Assembly: GCF_050920415.1 (NCBI RefSeq) | Contig: NZ_CP169309.1 | Reading direction: 5' to 3' (one strand) | DNA: 64,000 bases | Origin: Escherichia coli | GTDB lineage: Bacteria; Pseudomonadota; Gammaproteobacteria; Enterobacterales; Enterobacteriaceae | Part shown: piece by piece, positions 27,837-53,883 of the stretch | Position numbering within the stretch: position 1 is the stretch's first letter | Layout of the letters: every line of letters starts with the position of its first letter | The notes under the pieces: model-generated | What the model saw: the letters and a program-made list of their open reading frames with translations, nothing else | What the model was told of the DNA's origin: nothing | Databases searched by the model: none | Translations under genes and position numbers: made by a program

Positions 27837-28865
27837 ATGGCGCATATTGTAACCCTAAATACCCCATCCAGAGAAGATTGGTTAACGCAACTTGCCGATG
27901 TTGTGACCGATCCTGATGAACTTCTGCGTCTTTTGAATATAGACGCGGACGAAAAACTGTTGGCCGGACGCAGCGCCAAAAAGCTGTTTGCCCTGCGTGT
28001 TCCCCGCTCATTTATCGATCGCATGGAGAAAGGCAATCCGGACGATCCACTTTTGCGTCAGGTACTTACCTCGCAAGATGAGTTTGTCGTCGCGCCCGGA
28101 TTCTCCACCGACCCGCTGGAAGAACAGCACAGCGTAGTGCCTGGTTTGTTGCATAAATACCACAACCGGGCGCTATTGCTGGTCAAAGGCGGCTGTGCGG
28201 TAAATTGCCGTTATTGCTTTCGTCGCCATTTCCCGTATGCCGAAAATCAGGGCAACAAGCGAAACTGGCAGACGGCACTTGAGTATGTTGCAGCGCATCC
28301 GGAACTGGACGAGATGATTTTCTCCGGCGGCGATCCGCTGATGGCGAAAGATCACGAGCTGGACTGGTTGCTCACACAACTGGAAGCCATCCCGCATATC
28401 AAACGTCTGCGGATTCACAGCCGTCTGCCGATTGTGATCCCGGCACGCATCACAGATGCGCTGGTCGAACGCTTTTCACATTCTACGCTGCAAATCTTGC
28501 TGGTGAATCACATCAACCATGCCAATGAGGTAGATGAAACATTCCGCCAGGCGATGGCTAAGTTGCGCCGGGTAGGCGTTACTTTGCTGAACCAGAGCGT
28601 TCTGTTACGTGGTGTGAACGATAACGCACAAACGCTGGCAAACCTGAGTAATGCGTTGTTCGATGCGGGCGTGATGCCGTATTACCTGCATGTGCTCGAT
28701 AAAGTACAGGGCGCGGCGCATTTTATGGTGAGTGATGACGAAGCACGGCAGATTATGCGTGAGCTGCTGACGCTGGTATCTGGATATATGGTGCCGAAAC
28801 TGGCGCGCGAGATTGGCGGCGAACCCAGCAAAACGCCGCTGGATCTCCAGCTACCCCAGCAGTAA
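27837..28865 (+). CDS. epmB: EF-P beta-lysylation protein EpmB (lysine 2,3-aminomutase-like, radical SAM)
   Basis: 342-aa ORF with radical-SAM CxxxCxxC motif (CAVNCRYCFRR); divergent from efp. Confidence 0.93.
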   Translation: MAHIVTLNTPSREDWLTQLADVVTDPDELLRLLNIDADEKLLAGRSAKKLFALRVPRSFIDRMEKGNPDDPLLRQVLTSQDEFVVAPGFSTDPLEEQHSVVPGLLHKYHNRALLLVKGGCAVNCRYCFRRHFPYAENQGNKRNWQTALEYVAAHPELDEMIFSGGDPLMAKDHELDWLLTQLEAIPHIKRLRIHSRLPIVIPARITDALVERFSHSTLQILLVNHINHANEVDETFRQAMAKLRRVGVTLLNQSVLLRGVNDNAQTLANLSNALFDAGVMPYYLHVLDKVQGAAHFMVSDDEARQIMRELLTLVSGYMVPKLAREIGGEPSKTPLDLQLPQQ

Positions 28866-29099
28866 CTGATTAAACAGGGAAGTTTAATCTTTGCACGTTG
28901 CATAACCTTTAATTATTCATATACATTGCTGTTATTACTTTTTATATAACCAACACCAATAATTAACCTTTCTTTTCTGTTTATATAGAGTGAGCACGGC
29001 TATTTATGTTATTTTAACAACTATTACTACCAAGCCCATTTATCTGGCTTATAAATTAAAATTAATTATTTAATTGAGAAATGGTTAGGGAGAACCTAC

Positions 29100-29969
29100 A
29101 TGGCCATAAGCATCAAGGGTGTTAATACCGGTGTTATTCGCAAGAGTAATAATTTCATTGCACTGGCGCTGAAAATTAAAGAGCCTCGCAATAAAGAATC
29201 GTTGTTCTTTCTGTCTGTCATGGAACTGCGCGACCTGCTGATTGCGCTGGAAAGCCGTCTGCATCAAAAGCATAAACTGGATGCTGCAGCACGCCTTCAG
29301 TATGAGCAAGCTCGCGATAAAGTCATTAAGAAAATGGCAGAAAATATCCCAGAAATTCTGGTTGATGAGCTTAAAAATGCCGATATTAATCGTCGAGTTA
29401 ACACGCTGGAACTTACCGATAATCAGGGTGAAAATCTTACCTTCGTATTAACGCTACATGACGGTAGCAAATGTGAGTTAGTCATCAATGAGTTGCAGAT
29501 TGAAATGCTGGCGCGAGCAATCATTCATGCAATTAATAATGCGGAAATGCGTGAACTGGCATTACGTATTACCTCACTGTTAGATTTCCTGCCGTTATAC
29601 GACGTTGACTGCCAGGACAATGGCAATCTGGAATATGACACCTATTCCCAACCAGAATGGAAACATAACTTGTTCAACCATTATCTGGCAGTGCTTTATC
29701 GCTTTAAAGATGAAAATGGCAAAGAGCAATTTAGCGGCGCGGTGGTGAAAACGCGTGAAGCAACGCCGGGTAAAGAAGTGGAGGCGATCACTCGCCGAAT
29801 GCTTGATTTCAGCCCTAGACTGAAAAAACTCGCGGGTGTGCCATGTCAGGTCTATGTTCGCACCGTAGCGGCAAATAACACCCAACCGCTAACCCAGGAT
29901 CAATGCTTACGCGCGCTGCATCACTTACGTGTTCAGTCCATCAGCAAAAGTGCACCACAAGCGAAATAA
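29100..29969 (+). CDS. yjeJ: Uncharacterised protein YjeJ
   Basis: 289-aa ORF, visibly AT-rich relative to neighbours, no recognisable catalytic motif. Confidence 0.75.
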   Translation: MAISIKGVNTGVIRKSNNFIALALKIKEPRNKESLFFLSVMELRDLLIALESRLHQKHKLDAAARLQYEQARDKVIKKMAENIPEILVDELKNADINRRVNTLELTDNQGENLTFVLTLHDGSKCELVINELQIEMLARAIIHAINNAEMRELALRITSLLDFLPLYDVDCQDNGNLEYDTYSQPEWKHNLFNHYLAVLYRFKDENGKEQFSGAVVKTREATPGKEVEAITRRMLDFSPRLKKLAGVPCQVYVRTVAANNTQPLTQDQCLRALHHLRVQSISKSAPQAK

Positions 29970-30018
29970 TCTCATCTTTGCTAATGCGAGGCTGGAGTCA
30001 TCCAGCCTCTGAATCACA

Positions 30019-30372
30019 TCAATTCGGGCACTTATATACCTGGCCGATAATCTGGCTATCCGTCGGGACAAAACTGGACAACATTCCCTGCGACGGGCTG
30101 CTGATACCATAAATCACGTTACCACCCATTGCCGCTGCCTGGTTGCGCAGATCGTTTGCCGCACCACGCATAGAACCGCCTTCTTCACCGTGTTGCCCGG
30201 AAAGCCAGTTACTTTGCTTACCTGTCGCAGTACCAATCAACTGGCACTCTGCGCCTGGCTGCTCGTCCACAATGCGTACACTCTGACCGGCAGCACTCAA
30301 TTCGTTGCTGGAGCTACAACCCGCCATCAGTAGCGCGGCACCGACAATCCCTGCTAAGTATTTTACGTGCAT
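30019..30372 (-). CDS. yjeI: Putative lipoprotein YjeI
   Basis: ORF-track 128 aa; start set at MHVKYLAGIVGAALLMAGCSSS (lipobox). Confidence 0.75.
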   Translation of the reverse strand: MHVKYLAGIVGAALLMAGCSSSNELSAAGQSVRIVDEQPGAECQLIGTATGKQSNWLSGQHGEEGGSMRGAANDLRNQAAAMGGNVIYGISSPSQGMLSSFVPTDSQIIGQVYKCPN

Positions 30373-30450
30373 GTTATTCCCCATAATCAATGAGCTGGAC
30401 GCCACTCGCGTCGTCCGTGTCTGAATCTTATACTAGAAAGATGACCAAAA

Positions 30451-30480
30451 GAAAAACCCCCAGACATTTCTGCCCGGGGG
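30451..30480 (-). terminator. Rho-independent terminator of groESL
   Basis: Minus-strand hairpin CCCCCGGGCAGAAATGTCTGGGGG followed by TTTTT, just downstream of the groL stop. Confidence 0.55.
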
Positions 30481-30509
30481 TTTGTTTATTTCTGCGAGGT
30501 GCAGGGCAA

Positions 30510-40553: not shown

Positions 40554-40629
40554 GCCCGGATAGCTCAGTCGGTAGAGCAGGGGATTGAAAATCCCCGTGT
40601 CCTTGGTTCGATTCCGAGTCCGGGCACCA
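40554..40629 (+). tRNA. pheU: tRNA-Phe (anticodon GAA)
   Basis: GCCCGGATAGCTCAGTCGGTAGAGCAGGGGATTGAAAATCCCCGTGTCCTTGGTTCGATTCCGAGTCCGGGCACCA. Confidence 0.95.
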
Positions 40630-40638
40630 AATTCATAT

Positions 40639-40667
40639 AAACGGACCTCCACGGAGGTCCGTTTTTC
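40639..40667 (+). terminator. Rho-independent terminator after tRNA-Phe
   Basis: Hairpin GGACCTCC...GGAGGTCC followed by TTTTT. Confidence 0.7.
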
Positions 40668-40670
40668 GTT

Positions 40671-40946
40671 TCAGGACGCCATGTGATTTAAGCGTTCTGC
40701 CTTCAAATCATTTCTAACAATCTCAACCAAATTTTCCCACATCGCCAGCATGTTGCGGGTATACCCCAGCTCTGGGAAATTTATCCCTAAGCTATGAATG
40801 ACTCTCACGAAATGTCGTGCGGCTGCGTGATGCAGTTGAAAATCAAATGATGTCATCAAGAGCTTAACGGTATCGTTGCCGATGACATATATAAAGCACA
40901 ACCTCGGGCAGAACGCCGACTGATGAGATTTTCTGAATGAGAACAA
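40671..40946 (-). pseudogene. Possible degenerate integrase-like remnant ORF next to tRNA-Phe (uncertain)
   Basis: 91-aa ORF next to the tRNA 3' end; contains H-x-x-x-R and L-G-Y segments loosely resembling tyrosine-recombinase C-terminal motifs; no full-length partner. Confidence 0.3.
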
Positions 40947-41260
40947 AGAGAAATGTATCAGTCCGCTTGCTCATGCAAAGACTAACAATCCATAAAAATA
41001 GTAAGCGCGCCGGGCAATTTCCCATGGATTATTTTCTGAACATTTTTCTTTGGCAAAGATGATGAATTTTGATGATAAGGAATATTACTTCTGGTTCTCA
41101 GTAAAATCCTTTCGTAATACTATGTAATCAAGAAGTTTATGGCTGGTAAAAATAACGTCTTGCATTCACCAATTATATGTAAATAAAACCATCTATAGAT
41201 GGTAAAAATAGGTTGTGGCAATTATCATTGAACCATTCCCTTTTCGAATGAGTTTCTATT

Positions 41261-42799
41261 ATGCAACAACCTGTAGTTCGCGTTGGCGAATGGCTTGTTA
41301 CTCCGTCCATAAACCAAATTAGTCGCAATGGGCGTCAACTTACCCTTGAGCCGAGATTAATCGATCTTCTGGTTTTCTTTGCTCAACACAGTGGCGAAGT
41401 ACTTAGCAGGGATGAACTTATCGATAATGTCTGGAAGAGAAGTATTGTCACCAATCACGTTGTGACGCAGAGTATCTCAGAACTACGTAAGTCATTAAAA
41501 GATAATGATGAAGATAGTCCTGTCTATATCGCTACTGTACCAAAGCGCGGCTATAAATTAATGGTGCCGGTTATCTGGTACAGCGAAGAAGAGGGAGAGG
41601 AAATAATGCTATCTTCGCCTCCCCCTATACCAGAGGCGGTTCCTGACACAGATTCTCCCTCCCAAAGTCTTAACATTCAAAGCACCGCAACACCACCTGA
41701 ACAATCCCCAGTTAAAAGCAAACGATTCACTACCTTTTGGGTATGGTTTTTTTTCCTGTTGTCGTTAGGTATCTGTGTAGCACTGGTAGCGTTTTCAAGT
41801 CTTGATACACGTCTTCCTATGAGCAAATCGCGTATTTTGCTCAATCCACGCGATATTGACATTAATATGGTAAATAAAAGTTGTAACAGCTGGAGTTCCC
41901 CGTATCAGCTCTCTTACGCGATAGGCGTGGGTGATTTGGTGGCGACATCACTTAACACCTTCTCCACCTTTATGGTGCATGACAAAATCAACTACAACAT
42001 TGATGAACCGAGCAGTTCCGGTAAAACATTATCTATTGCGTTTGTTAATCAGCGCCAATACCGTGCTCAACAATGCTTTATGTCGGTAAAATTGGTAGAC
42101 AATGCAGATGGTTCAACCATGCTGGATAAACGTTATGTCATCACTAACGGTAATCAGCTGGCGATTCAAAATGATTTACTGGAGAGTTTATCAAAAGCGT
42201 TAAACCAACCGTGGCCACAACGAATGCAGGAGATGCTCCAGCAAATTTTGCCGCATCGTGGTGCGTTATTAACTAATTTTTATCAGGCTCATGATTATTT
42301 ACTGCATGGCGATGATAAATCATTGAACCGTGCCAGTGAATTACTAGGTGAGATTGTTCAATCATCCCCCGAATTTACCTACGCGAGAGCAGAAAAAGCA
42401 TTAGTTGATATCGTGCGCCATTCTCAACATCCTTTAGATGAAAAACAATTAGCAGCACTGAATACAGAAATAGATAACATTGTTACACTGCCGGAATTGA
42501 ACAACCTGTCCATTATATATCAAATAAAAGCGGTCAGTGCTCTGGTAAAAGGTAAAACAGATGAGTCTTACCAGGCGATAAATACTGGCATTGATCTTGA
42601 AATGTCCTGGCTAAATTATGTGTTGCTTGGCAAGGTTTATGAAATGAAGGGGATGAACCGGGAAGCAGCTGATGCATATCTCACCGCCTTTAATTTACGC
42701 CCAGGGGCAAACACCCTTTACTGGATTGAAAATGGTATATTCCAGACTTCTGTTCCTTATGTTGTACCTTATCTCGACAAATTTCTCGCCTCAGAATAA
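41261..42799 (+). CDS. cadC: Membrane-integrated transcriptional activator CadC (ToxR-like)
   Basis: 512-aa ORF MQQPVVRVGEWLVTPSINQISRNGRQLTLEPRLIDLLVFF...; winged-helix N-terminus, single TM, periplasmic sensor. Confidence 0.95.
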   Translation: MQQPVVRVGEWLVTPSINQISRNGRQLTLEPRLIDLLVFFAQHSGEVLSRDELIDNVWKRSIVTNHVVTQSISELRKSLKDNDEDSPVYIATVPKRGYKLMVPVIWYSEEEGEEIMLSSPPPIPEAVPDTDSPSQSLNIQSTATPPEQSPVKSKRFTTFWVWFFFLLSLGICVALVAFSSLDTRLPMSKSRILLNPRDIDINMVNKSCNSWSSPYQLSYAIGVGDLVATSLNTFSTFMVHDKINYNIDEPSSSGKTLSIAFVNQRQYRAQQCFMSVKLVDNADGSTMLDKRYVITNGNQLAIQNDLLESLSKALNQPWPQRMQEMLQQILPHRGALLTNFYQAHDYLLHGDDKSLNRASELLGEIVQSSPEFTYARAEKALVDIVRHSQHPLDEKQLAALNTEIDNIVTLPELNNLSIIYQIKAVSALVKGKTDESYQAINTGIDLEMSWLNYVLLGKVYEMKGMNREAADAYLTAFNLRPGANTLYWIENGIFQTSVPYVVPYLDKFLASE

Positions 42800-42874
42800 G
42801 TGACTCCCGGGTTGACTCATGCTCGGGAATATTTGTTGTTGATTTTTTGTATGTTATTGTTGATATAATATGTT

Positions 42875-42900
42875 GCGGCAATTTATTTGCCGCATATTTT
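42875..42900 (+). terminator. Terminator-like hairpin after cadC
   Basis: GCGGCAAAT-TT-ATTTGCCGC followed by a T-rich run. Confidence 0.5.
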
Positions 42901-48477: not shown

Positions 48478-49995
48478 ATGTCTGAACGAGAAACACGGGG
48501 AGCCAATGAGGCTATTGATTTTAACGATGAACTGAGAAATCGCCGCGAAAAACTGGCAGCACTGCGTCAGCAAGGTGTGGCGTTTCCTAATGATTTTCGC
48601 CGCGACCATACCTCTGACCAGTTGCACGAAGAGTTTGATGCGAAGGATAACCAGGAACTGGAATCCTTAAACATTGAAGTCTCGGTTGCTGGCCGAATGA
48701 TGACCCGTCGTATCATGGGGAAAGCCTCCTTTGTAACGTTGCAGGATGTCGGTGGCCGTATTCAACTGTACGTTGCACGAGATAGCCTGCCAGAAGGTGT
48801 TTATAACGATCAGTTTAAAAAATGGGACCTCGGCGACATTATCGGTGCCCGCGGTACGCTGTTTAAGACGCAAACGGGTGAACTTTCCATTCACTGTACT
48901 GAGCTGCGCCTGCTGACTAAAGCACTACGTCCTTTACCAGATAAATTCCATGGTCTGCAGGATCAGGAAGTCCGTTATCGTCAACGTTATCTGGACCTCA
49001 TCGCTAACGATAAATCCCGTCAAACGTTTGTTGTCCGTTCAAAAATTCTGGCCGCTATCCGCCAGTTCATGGTCGCGCGCGGCTTTATGGAAGTAGAAAC
49101 CCCGATGATGCAGGTAATTCCAGGTGGGGCATCTGCTCGCCCGTTTATTACCCATCATAATGCTCTGGATTTGGATATGTACCTGCGTATTGCGCCGGAG
49201 CTATATCTGAAACGTCTGGTTGTAGGTGGTTTTGAACGGGTATTCGAAATCAACCGTAACTTCCGTAATGAAGGTATTTCTGTTCGTCATAATCCTGAGT
49301 TCACGATGATGGAACTCTACATGGCGTATGCGGATTACCACGATTTGATTGAACTGACGGAATCACTGTTCCGCACTCTGGCACAAGAGGTACTGGGTAC
49401 CACTAAAGTCACTTATGGCGAGCATGTGTTTGATTTCGGCAAACCGTTTGAAAAACTCACCATGCGCGAAGCAATCAAAAAATATCGTCCAGAAACCGAT
49501 ATGGCGGACCTGGATAATTTTGATGCTGCTAAAGCATTAGCTGAATCTATCGGAATTACGGTAGAGAAAAGCTGGGGGCTGGGACGCATTGTCACGGAGA
49601 TCTTTGATGAAGTGGCAGAAGCACATCTGATTCAGCCAACCTTTATCACGGAATATCCGGCAGAAGTGTCACCGCTGGCGCGCCGTAATGATGTTAACCC
49701 GGAAATCACCGACCGTTTTGAATTCTTCATCGGTGGTCGTGAAATCGGTAATGGTTTTAGCGAATTAAACGACGCAGAAGATCAGGCGGAACGTTTCCAG
49801 GAACAGGTTAACGCTAAAGCTGCAGGTGACGACGAAGCCATGTTCTATGACGAAGATTACGTGACTGCGCTGGAATATGGTCTGCCGCCAACCGCGGGTC
49901 TGGGTATTGGTATCGACCGAATGATTATGCTGTTTACTAACAGTCATACTATTCGCGACGTTATTCTCTTCCCGGCGATGCGTCCACAGAAATAA
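48478..49995 (+). CDS. lysU: Lysine--tRNA ligase, heat-inducible (LysU)
   Basis: ORF-track 514 aa; start set at [33 protein letters not shown]...; class II aaRS motifs; identified as lysU by its position next to cadBA/dtpC. Confidence 0.93.
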
Positions 49996-50006
49996 ATTTC
50001 ATTTTA

Positions 50007-50040
50007 ACGAACGAAGCAGTCAGACGACTGCTTCGTTCGT
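50007..50040. terminator. Bidirectional terminator-like hairpin between lysU and ghoT
   Basis: Perfect 15-bp inverted repeat ACGAACGAAGCAGTC-AGAC-GACTGCTTCGTTCGT between convergent genes; no strong T-run. Confidence 0.45.
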
Positions 50041-50113
50041 CGTTCCACAAATCCAGTTTCGAGGAGAGACGCTTCGTTTCAAGATAACCAGCGGGTCCAC
50101 TCAACTACAGCTC

Positions 50114-50287
50114 CTAAAAGAGAGAAAAAAGTAATGCCACAGGCAGGCTCATTGGCCAGGTTATTCCGACCAGAAATGCACTAAGTAAACGAATATGTGT
50201 TTTCTCATGTGAGATAAACCAGATAATGACAAAGGATATGTTCACACCAATCACATAAAAAATTAATATTTTAGAGAATAGTGCCAT
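50114..50287 (-). CDS. ghoT: Type V toxin GhoT (small membrane-lytic peptide)
   Basis: 57-aa ORF MALFSKILIFYVIGVNISFVIIWFISHEKTHIRLLSAFLVGITWPMSLPVALLFSLF, immediately downstream of ghoS; below the ORF-track size cut-off. Confidence 0.85.
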   Translation of the reverse strand: MALFSKILIFYVIGVNISFVIIWFISHEKTHIRLLSAFLVGITWPMSLPVALLFSLF

Positions 50288-50314
50288 TTTTTATGTTCTT
50301 CTTATCCTTCCTGA

Positions 50315-53167: not shown

Positions 53168-53883
53168 TCAATGTATTAATTATTGATGACGACGCAATGG
53201 TCGCGGAGCTGAATCGTCGATACGTGGCACAAATCCCAGGCTTTCAATGCTGTGGAACGGCCTCGACGCTGGAGAAAGCCAAAGAGATTATCTTCAATAG
53301 CGATACGCCTATCGACCTGATATTGCTCGATATCTATATGCAAAAAGAGAACGGGCTCGATTTACTGCCTGTTCTGCATAATGCGCGTTGCAAAAGTGAT
53401 GTGATTGTTATCTCTTCCGCTGCCGATGCCGCAACCATTAAAGATTCGCTGCATTACGGAGTCGTGGATTACCTGATCAAACCCTTCCAGGCTACCCGCT
53501 TTGAAGAGGCGCTCACCGGCTGGCGGCAAAAGAAAATGGCGCTGGAAAAACATCAGTATTATGACCAGGCCGAGCTTGATCAGCTAATCCACGGCAGCAG
53601 CTCCAACGAGCAGGATCCTCGTCGCTTGCCAAAAGGCTTAACACCACAGACGTTACGCACGCTGTGCCAGTGGATTGACGCGCATCAGGACTATGAGTTT
53701 TCAACCGACGAGCTGGCTAATGAGGTTAACATCTCGCGTGTTTCCTGCCGTAAATATCTCATCTGGCTGGTCAACTGCCACATCTTGTTCACCAGTATCC
53801 ATTATGGCGTCACAGGTCGTCCGGTTTATCGTTATCGTATTCAGGCAGAACATTACTCACTACTTAAACAATATTGCCAATAA
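53164..53883 (+). CDS. dcuR: Response regulator DcuR
   Basis: 239-aa ORF MINVLIIDDDAMVAELNRRYV...; ATGA overlap with the dcuS stop. Confidence 0.95.
   Translation: MINVLIIDDDAMVAELNRRYVAQIPGFQCCGTASTLEKAKEIIFNSDTPIDLILLDIYMQKENGLDLLPVLHNARCKSDVIVISSAADAATIKDSLHYGVVDYLIKPFQATRFEEALTGWRQKKMALEKHQYYDQAELDQLIHGSSSNEQDPRRLPKGLTPQTLRTLCQWIDAHQDYEFSTDELANEVNISRVSCRKYLIWLVNCHILFTSIHYGVTGRPVYRYRIQAEHYSLLKQYCQ

Follow-up and report, generated by a model that had tools for sequence, protein, structure and literature searches.

The Escherichia coli gene yjeJ probably descends from a mobile genetic island. In a 64,000-nucleotide stretch of the E. coli chromosome (contig NZ_CP169309.1 of RefSeq assembly GCF_050920415.1; the whole stretch is called the window here), yjeJ occupies positions 29100-29969 of the + strand, encodes 289 amino acids (aa), and is the sole long open reading frame (ORF) of the interval 28866-30018. 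A preliminary description made from the letters alone had these coordinates and this length correct. We consider it well supported that a horizontally mobile, AT-rich island ended in this gene, of which E. coli has the solo remnant or a solo representative. More tentatively, YjeJ may be an immunity-type cytoplasmic self-protection protein, in which case the E. coli copy would be an orphan immunity gene. The two proposals combined, an island-derived solo gene with an immunity-type role, form our best explanation, which we place somewhat short of an even chance.

Diverged YjeJ homologues, 20-39% identical to the E. coli protein, are encoded by genes that begin 9-30 bp past the stop codon of a Peptidase_C39 ABC exporter gene on the same strand. 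This junction was found in seven lineages: Klebsiella pneumoniae, Klebsiella grimontii, Klebsiella quasipneumoniae, Raoultella ornithinolytica, Kosakonia radicincitans, Budvicia diplopodorum (which belongs to a different family from the other island hosts), and one unassigned contig. Upstream of the exporter lie a gene for an HlyD-family adaptor, one or two ORFs of 108-124 aa, and a chaperone-usher fimbrial operon. The full island comprises a winged-helix regulator, the fimbrial operon, one or two class II microcin-like glycine-zipper peptides with double-glycine leaders, the HlyD-type adaptor, the C39 ABC exporter, and YjeJ. K. grimontii and K. pneumoniae show the arrangement efp-epmB-(winged-helix regulator, fimbrial operon, peptides, adaptor, exporter, yjeJ)-yjeI-groLS, and the 11-kb Klebsiella island occupies exactly the epmB-yjeI gap, where E. 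coli has a 234-bp spacer and yjeJ. This microcin-like locus adjoins groESL in K. pneumoniae.

The island block is present at four chromosomal sites, namely, epmB/yjeI (Klebsiella), oprD/cus (Raoultella), near lysS/prfB (Kosakonia radicincitans), and a BON/LysM locus (Budvicia); the block thus travels as one unit. Exporter and yjeJ keep their junction whether the peptide genes precede the adaptor or follow yjeJ, as they do in K. quasipneumoniae, and also where the fimbrial operon has been rearranged. The GC content of the island genes is 37-47%, compared with 55-62% in the flanking genes of their hosts.

The small island ORFs begin with double-glycine leaders (MKQLTVFEMEAISGG, MKELTVFEMDTISGG, and MRELSVFEMNEIAGG, plus AG and GA variants), continue into glycine-zipper cores (GGTQSGANGGLLGFG...), and end with a DGxFxPW motif. 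These peptides of 108-124 aa are unannotated (L056 1692-2057 and 2124-2492; L060 5053-5379; L058 5178-5522; L062 5188-5529; L065 4106-4480; L066 9487-10567) and always stand beside the HlyD/C39-ABC exporter pair and the chaperone-usher operon. They matched no curated Pfam or NCBIfam family, DUF5862 appearing only below threshold, and their sequences were not found in the papers or supplements searched. The exporter itself scores as a bacteriocin-type peptide cleavage/export ABC transporter. Identity across islands is 67-82% for the exporter, 52-76% for the adaptor, 33-62% for the peptide, and 20-44% for YjeJ. The minimal Kosakonia island (L063) has no conserved small membrane ORF, and all of its genes except yjeJ have an assigned role. 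The K. grimontii and K. quasipneumoniae islands (L060 4356-4598; L066 9077-9364) also encode a second, unrelated type of peptide with a double-glycine leader, 78-95 aa long and ending in ...AGRDLAK.A...G.V.IVNSIFGW, which could be another secreted product or else a signal peptide.

The islands share with class II microcin clusters of the colicin V type (cvaC-cvi-cvaA-cvaB) a precursor with a double-glycine, GA, or AG leader, an HlyD adaptor, and a C39 ABC exporter, and the island exporter has weak nucleotide similarity to cvaB. Like toxin/immunity systems, they combine a conserved exporter with a fast-diverging peptide and YjeJ. They differ from class II microcin clusters in being always joined to a chaperone-usher fimbrial operon, a linkage that by analogy suggests surface-associated action, and their peptides are putative antibacterials. 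YjeJ differs too, being a soluble protein of 280 aa encoded next to the exporter rather than a small membrane immunity protein encoded by the toxin gene. The islands also recall the Caulobacter contact-dependent Cdz bacteriocin system, which reportedly exports glycine-zipper peptides through a C39 ABC exporter and adaptor and whose immunity protein, CdzI, is said to be a membrane protein; to our knowledge, Cdz includes neither a YjeJ homologue nor a fimbrial operon. A gene beside precursor, adaptor, and exporter is what the seven homologue lineages have, whereas neither the window nor any of 45 loci carrying yjeJ alone has these partners. E. coli yjeJ is related to a component of microcin clusters and is not itself within one.

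In a midpoint-rooted neighbor-joining tree, the solo, epmB-linked copies form one clade (60/60 bootstraps) that is nested among the exporter-linked lineages and broadly follows genus relationships. As the simplest account, we propose that yjeJ came to the epmB/yjeI locus as the last gene of the island and that the ancestor of the Escherichia/Citrobacter/Kluyvera group would then have lost every island gene but this one. The solo gene would have acquired its own AT-rich promoter region before passing into vertical inheritance, purifying selection, and expression, and its AT-richness would be a retained island signature, not the mark of a dead or recently imported gene. Because the tree is midpoint rooted, we only infer the loss of the island. 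The converse, that islands landed repeatedly just upstream of a pre-existing yjeJ, leaves the same junction at three other chromosomal sites unexplained.

The gene's immediate neighbors, placed from a 100% identical E. coli record, are epmB (27837-28865, +) and the lipoprotein gene yjeI (30019-30372, -), which is convergent with yjeJ; the wider order in that record is frdABCD-ampC-blc-sugE-ecnBA-efp-epmB-yjeJ-yjeI-groLS-yjeH-fxsA-aspA. The preliminary description had put yjeJ between epmB and groESL, which is accurate on the epmB side only, since yjeI intervenes on the other. The features of the locus are as follows.

28866..29099, no strand: epmB-yjeJ spacer, 28.2% GC, holding the yjeJ promoter region.
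28963..28991, + strand: sigma-70 promoter TTAACC-17-TAGAGT, proposed from genomic SELEX.
29007..29015, + strand: extended -10-like element TGnTATTTT; no part of the spacer is conserved better across genera.
29087..29092, + strand: Shine-Dalgarno sequence AGGGAG within the block AATGGTTAGGGAGAACC, from the upstream alignment of nine genera.
29100..29969, + strand: coding sequence of yjeJ (289 aa); the protein is soluble, with a pI of 8.6, and the beta-sheet/helix repeats of its model are possibly PUR-like.
29988..30009, no strand: 9-bp G+C-rich hairpin between the convergent yjeJ and yjeI, from predicted folding energy.

Among the 45 long ORFs of the window, yjeJ has the second-lowest GC content, cadC alone being lower. 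Its 44.8% GC compares with a mean of 51.8% (standard deviation, 3.1; z = -2.3) and its third-position GC (GC3) of 45.2% with a mean of 56.1% (z = -2.0), while its synonymous-codon usage is average (scaled chi2 of 0.23 versus a mean of 0.24). GC content is 42-43% in the first two thirds of the gene and 48-51% in the last third. The upstream spacer is as GC-poor as just 0.11% of 234-bp windows and contains 33 TpA steps, where about 11 are expected, whereas the 49-bp downstream spacer (29970-30018) is 49% GC and mostly hairpin. Overall, the interval 28866-30018 (41.6% GC) is among the lowest 4% of 1,153-bp windows. The earlier statement that the gene and both its flanks are AT-rich is thus right for yjeJ and the upstream spacer but not for the downstream one, and against its neighbors the gene stands out in GC content but not in codon usage. 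The GC content of yjeJ is below that of epmB, yjeI, and yjeH in 44 of 45 syntenic lineages, by a mean of 8.6 points (10.6 points in GC3). AT-richness shared this widely is an old trait retained across these lineages.

The hairpin has a predicted folding energy of -19.5 kcal/mol (z = -4.3 versus shuffles) and is probably a bidirectional terminator; it was absent from the terminator-scan output because it has no T-run on either strand. No DNA similarity was found between the E. coli spacers, the upstream one included, and the Klebsiella, Raoultella, Kosakonia, or Budvicia islands, and an Rfam scan of 28700-30500 gave chance-level matches only. In K-12 (strain MFDpir), yjeJ is flanked by REP/BIME-type insertions, one upstream of about 160 bp and one downstream of about 150 bp, the latter just past the hairpin; the window strain lacks both (window 28866-29099 and 29970-30018 versus L002 5838-6231 and 7102-7303). 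Short flank duplications, CTGATTAAAC..GGGAAGTT and CCAGCCTCTGxATCACATCA, border the insertions.

Elsewhere in the window, a strong terminator with a 13-bp stem and a T-run lies just downstream of groL (30454-30483, -); its sub-threshold Rfam match to ctRNA_p42d (E 0.04) very probably reflects the hairpin alone. Comparably AT-rich stretches are found at about 40600-42900, 49500-50300, and 53300-53400. The first spans cadC (42.0% GC, the lowest of any ORF in the window) with its flanks; downstream of cadC, the spacer equals that of yjeJ in AT-richness.

The interval 28866-30018 is present in 5,425 of 5,426 complete E. coli genomes, with coverage of at least 80% in 5,383. A scan of one genome per GTDB species found solo yjeJ at 45 loci, one per species, in about 15 enterobacterial genera, including Escherichia, Citrobacter, Pseudocitrobacter, Kluyvera, Superficieibacter, Salmonella (subsp. 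arizonae and diarizonae), Trabulsiella, Intestinirhabdus, Yokenella, Kosakonia, Phytobacter, and Pluralibacter; the query comprised 8 closer sequences and was biased to E. coli-like YjeJ, and the scan cannot show absence from Enterobacter, Cronobacter, or similar genera. Every solo locus long enough to judge has the order efp(-), epmB(+), yjeJ(+), yjeI(-), groL(-). The gene is not strain-specific, then, and it keeps the same epmB/yjeI position in 45 species. Among 1.84 billion proteins, the YjeJ family forms 99 clusters at 50% identity, about 30 of them full length, and all named members are from Enterobacterales.

YjeJ evolves quickly under constraint. Across the solo loci its identity to the E. 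coli protein falls to 40-76%, compared with 83-94% for EpmB and 96-98% for GroL, and its nonsynonymous divergence (dN) from Citrobacter, Salmonella, and Kluyvera, 0.18-0.34, is 3.7-5 times that of epmB. Within Escherichia, the ratio of nonsynonymous to synonymous divergence (dN/dS) is 0.04-0.14, which indicates clear purifying selection. The gene is truncated in Salmonella enterica subsp. diarizonae and arizonae (L030 6001-6840; L042 6225-6833), one copy having a stop after 97 codons and the other giving a partial match, and both have the look of pseudogenes; yjeJ seems to be decaying in Salmonella, yet it is kept in Escherichia and Citrobacter. An old horizontal acquisition, as first suggested, remains plausible given the low GC content in 44 of 45 lineages and the relatives in AT-rich islands and on Serratia plasmids, but a patchy, recent, or decaying gain does not fit a gene of near-universal presence in E. 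coli, wide generic range, and low dN/dS.

The epmB-yjeJ-yjeI-groL junctions are insertion hot spots (L036 6968-8686; L010 4060-5778; the yjeI-groL gaps of L029 and L010). Kosakonia and Phytobacter have a methyl-accepting chemotaxis gene between yjeJ and yjeI, Citrobacter youngae has a 572-aa ORF between epmB and yjeJ, and both C. youngae and Kluyvera sichuanensis have yjeI-groL gaps of 2-3 kb. Several records appear contaminated or mislabeled (L003, L018, and L045; PLSDB CP125156.1, NZ_CP134663.1, NZ_CP141089.1, and NZ_OL790696.1). These anomalies comprise a Bacillus coahuilensis contig whose yjeJ is 97% E. coli, an apparently chimeric Bacteroidales metagenome-assembled contig in which an E. 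coli-like yjeJ-yjeI is joined to a groL of 63% identity, a "Chryseobacterium sp." assembly with an enterobacterial yjeJ locus, and PLSDB records of 4.8-5.4 Mb filed as plasmids.

The preliminary description also regarded yjeJ as probably silenced by H-NS, and an alternative to our explanation is that it is an anciently acquired foreign gene without any particular function that is kept silent by H-NS because it is AT-rich. In having an AT-rich coding sequence and a very AT-rich, TpA-rich upstream region, yjeJ resembles H-NS-silenced xenogeneic genes such as cadC/cadBA of the same window, and it is clearly more AT-rich than host core genes. It differs from them in being universal in the species, syntenic across genera, and under purifying selection, with an intact gene in >99% of the 5,426 genomes, where a patchy, strain- or lineage-specific distribution would be expected of such acquisitions. 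The truncated Salmonella copies would suit a relic, as would the deletion without a reported phenotype that is described below.

Evidence on expression also bears on silencing. Genomic SELEX proposed an RpoD "constitutive" promoter for yjeJ, TTAACC-17-TAGAGT, in the epmB-yjeJ spacer, and the same table flags cadB, adiA, and yjcF for H-NS but leaves the yjeJ spacer unflagged (PMC3946193). This sequence is located at 28963-28991 and is conserved only within Escherichia; a simple scan for consensus promoters detected none on the + strand of the spacer and did not pick up the SELEX one. In an alignment of nine upstream regions, the block TGTGCTATTTTAAC, which contains the extended -10-like element, is kept from Escherichia to Kluyvera and Trabulsiella, and the element may act as a promoter. 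GGAG is invariant 7 nucleotides before the ATG in all nine genera, and conservation of promoter and Shine-Dalgarno blocks across genera is not what a silent relic would be expected to show. YjeJ protein has been quantified in K-12 grown in LB (PMC9508795), and yjeJ is a listed Nac target whose transcript drops during long nitrogen starvation (PMC7417836); genes silenced by H-NS, in contrast, would be expected to stay unexpressed in standard growth. H-NS silencing of yjeJ is thus unsupported, the little, indirect evidence available pointing the other way, and we consider a functionless, silenced gene quite improbable. Since AT-richness persists in a selected core gene, AT-richness alone is no evidence of silencing or of recent transfer.

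The protein, said earlier to have no assignable motif, matches Pfam family PF15922 (YjeJ-like) over its whole length (576.6 bits against a gathering threshold of 27 bits; residues 1-283 on model positions 1-283). RefSeq annotates the gene as a YjeJ family member, and E. coli YjeJ is a plain member of this family (NCBI "YjeJ family protein"), with the same length and architecture; the family itself carries no functional annotation. Scans with NCBIfam and PADLOC gave no match and PHROGs only chance-level ones (E >= 0.008). Membership in an anti-phage defense or phage protein family was rejected, as there was no PADLOC or meaningful PHROG match.

An AlphaFold2 model of YjeJ built on a 25-sequence alignment is confident (pLDDT 93, pTM 0.88). 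It has three sheet-plus-helix modules (residues ~1-58, 99-147, and 163-237); a long helical hairpin follows the first of these, and a strand and a helix form the C terminus. The same secondary structure was modeled for the K. pneumoniae homologue (30% identical). Alignment of the modules with one another by hhalign detected no internal repeat (probabilities of <=3%). No family member has a hydrophobic segment of transmembrane strength, in keeping with the globular alpha/beta model. The pI is 5.0-5.7 in exporter-linked and plasmid members (net charge, -8 to -11) and 8.5-9.1 in the Escherichia/Citrobacter clade. Residues conserved family-wide include G7, N9, K25, P84, Q133, D162, Y167, Y179, W187, F192, G213, and K217, which makes a single biochemical activity probable for solo and island copies alike.

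In an immunity-type role, YjeJ would bind the producer's own glycine-zipper microcin from the cytoplasmic side, and in E. coli it would persist as orphan immunity against the peptides of neighbors such as Klebsiella. Several features might favor this role. YjeJ may owe its place as the fastest-evolving island component to such a function; its retention under selection where toxin and exporter are absent would suit an orphan immunity gene; and in the minimal Kosakonia island it could fill the one role left unassigned. Many immunity proteins are acidic, as are most YjeJ family members, which by analogy may point the same way, and the soluble immunity proteins of pediocin-like bacteriocins act from the cytoplasmic face. 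A tentative extension, to which we give about one chance in four, is that YjeJ would be the first known of a class of immunity proteins that are large, soluble, and cytoplasmic and act against fimbria-linked glycine-zipper microcins, shielding E. coli, Citrobacter, Kluyvera, and others.

Other observations weigh against an island-derived immunity gene. Searches of the window and all 45 solo loci with tblastn found no remnants of peptide, adaptor, or exporter, and for that reason island loss, as opposed to insertion beside a pre-existing yjeJ, rests on the tree. Nor was the exporter block found in the 5,426 complete E. coli genomes, where only the ATPase part of plasmid cvaB matched, at 66% on the nucleotide level. 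The immunity proteins known for class II microcins are small, sit in the membrane, and usually have their genes next to that of the toxin; YjeJ is a soluble protein of 289 aa whose gene follows the exporter, and it does not answer to the description of a small inner-membrane protein encoded beside a toxin. In a fused YjeJ-linker-microcin AlphaFold2 run, a crude test, the YjeJ fold was confident and the peptide reached a pLDDT of only 31-54; because of the low confidence in the peptide part, the model supports no complex. In K-12, a delta-yjeJ::bla allele has served as a linked marker taken to be neutral, no phenotype being noted (PMC10679819). Homologues are also encoded on plasmids. YjeJ-family genes stand among maintenance genes on Serratia conjugative plasmids and on E. 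coli plasmids of about 30 kb; the neighbors of these plasmid copies include ParA/ParG, ArdR, SprT-like, H-NS/Hha, and topoisomerase genes, and the plasmid examined has no exporter. The E. coli plasmids (pLAU-OXA4, NZ_CP045281.1; L068 7001-7492) encode a 163-aa homologue of the N-terminal half of YjeJ that shares 21% identity with the chromosomal protein and, at 19.5 bits, stays below the Pfam threshold; its gene lies 28 bp downstream of parA-parG and is followed by a RelE/ParE toxin pair. Finally, the best fold match, by Foldseek, was to the nucleic acid-binding PURA repeat I-II over about a third of the protein, a moderate match with a probability that Foldseek itself puts at 0.66-0.85 and an E value of about 0.05.

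The last two points, the plasmid settings and the PURA likeness, also suggest a different function. YjeJ could be a PUR/Whirly-like nucleic acid binder carried along by mobile DNA, which it would regulate or protect, the chromosomal copy having been co-opted by E. coli; it would be, for example, a post-transcriptional island regulator or a plasmid establishment factor. The mildly basic Escherichia and Citrobacter proteins fit such a role, but most members, including all exporter-linked and plasmid copies, are acidic, which is unusual for DNA or RNA binders, and the constant neighbor is an exporter, not a regulator. YjeJ also differs from Pur-alpha/PUR (Whirly-like) proteins in having three modules and extra helices in one 289-aa chain and in lacking a detectable internal sequence repeat. 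No Foldseek match in the PDB reached an E value of <=0.001, and a profile search of PDB sequences gave no relative at an E value of <=10. Structure prediction and remote-homology searching have thus provided a confident fold with a weak PUR-like likeness and no sequence relative in the PDB. We regard nucleic acid binding as rather unlikely.

The exporter junction itself allows another function, in which YjeJ would work with the C39 ABC exporter from the cytoplasm as a chaperone or adaptor, either holding the aggregation-prone glycine-zipper precursor in an export-competent state or delivering it to the exporter. The exporter gene immediately upstream is the one invariant neighbor in the seven island lineages, the adjacency survives rearrangement of peptide and fimbrial genes, and the island proteins are acidic and soluble. 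However, K-12 and the 5,426 E. coli genomes retain a selected yjeJ without the exporter, YjeJ diverges far faster than the exporter to which it would dock, and the fused-chain model shows no contact with the precursor. This function is, in our judgment, unlikely, and more so than nucleic acid binding.

The chromosomal setting in E. coli might instead suggest that YjeJ acts with efp and epmB in the modification of elongation factor P, as yjeJ adjoins epmB on the same strand in 45 species. Synteny argues against membership in that pathway, and it was rejected: the 11-kb island parts epmB from yjeJ in Klebsiella, and in Raoultella, Kosakonia radicincitans, Budvicia, and on Serratia plasmids yjeJ is far from epmB. 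In addition, yjeJ has its own promoter region, and the YjeJ family is confined to Enterobacterales, while efp and epmB are far more widespread. We consider this role extremely improbable. The remaining probability falls to other roles; YjeJ may, for example, be an enzyme, given its sharply conserved polar residues.

The yjeJ gene and its Pfam family were already known, and there is nothing unusual in an old island gene being AT-rich. No earlier report appears to connect the YjeJ family with a fimbria-associated export island of the class II microcin type. Microcin hits have been found in nearly all K. pneumoniae assemblies (Cole et al., PMC9746304), and surveys with hits in nearly all K. pneumoniae and most Kosakonia radicincitans assemblies make no mention of a YjeJ link (PMC9746304, PMC12219008). 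Our literature search found no paper containing both "yjeJ" and "microcin" and none linking PF15922 to microcins. On our reading, class II microcin systems of this type would have an unrecognized fourth component that survives alone in E. coli.

Among K-12 "y-genes," yjeJ has had no function, phenotype, or informative homologue, and the island link makes it testable for the first time, while drawing attention to an unannotated microcin-like locus. The gene also illustrates that lasting AT-richness can mark a gene's origin long after it has come to be vertically inherited and selected as a core gene. If the immunity-type role is correct, yjeJ would shield its hosts against Klebsiella, Raoultella, and Kosakonia peptides made from the homologous locus and would be a determinant of competition between genera in the gut.

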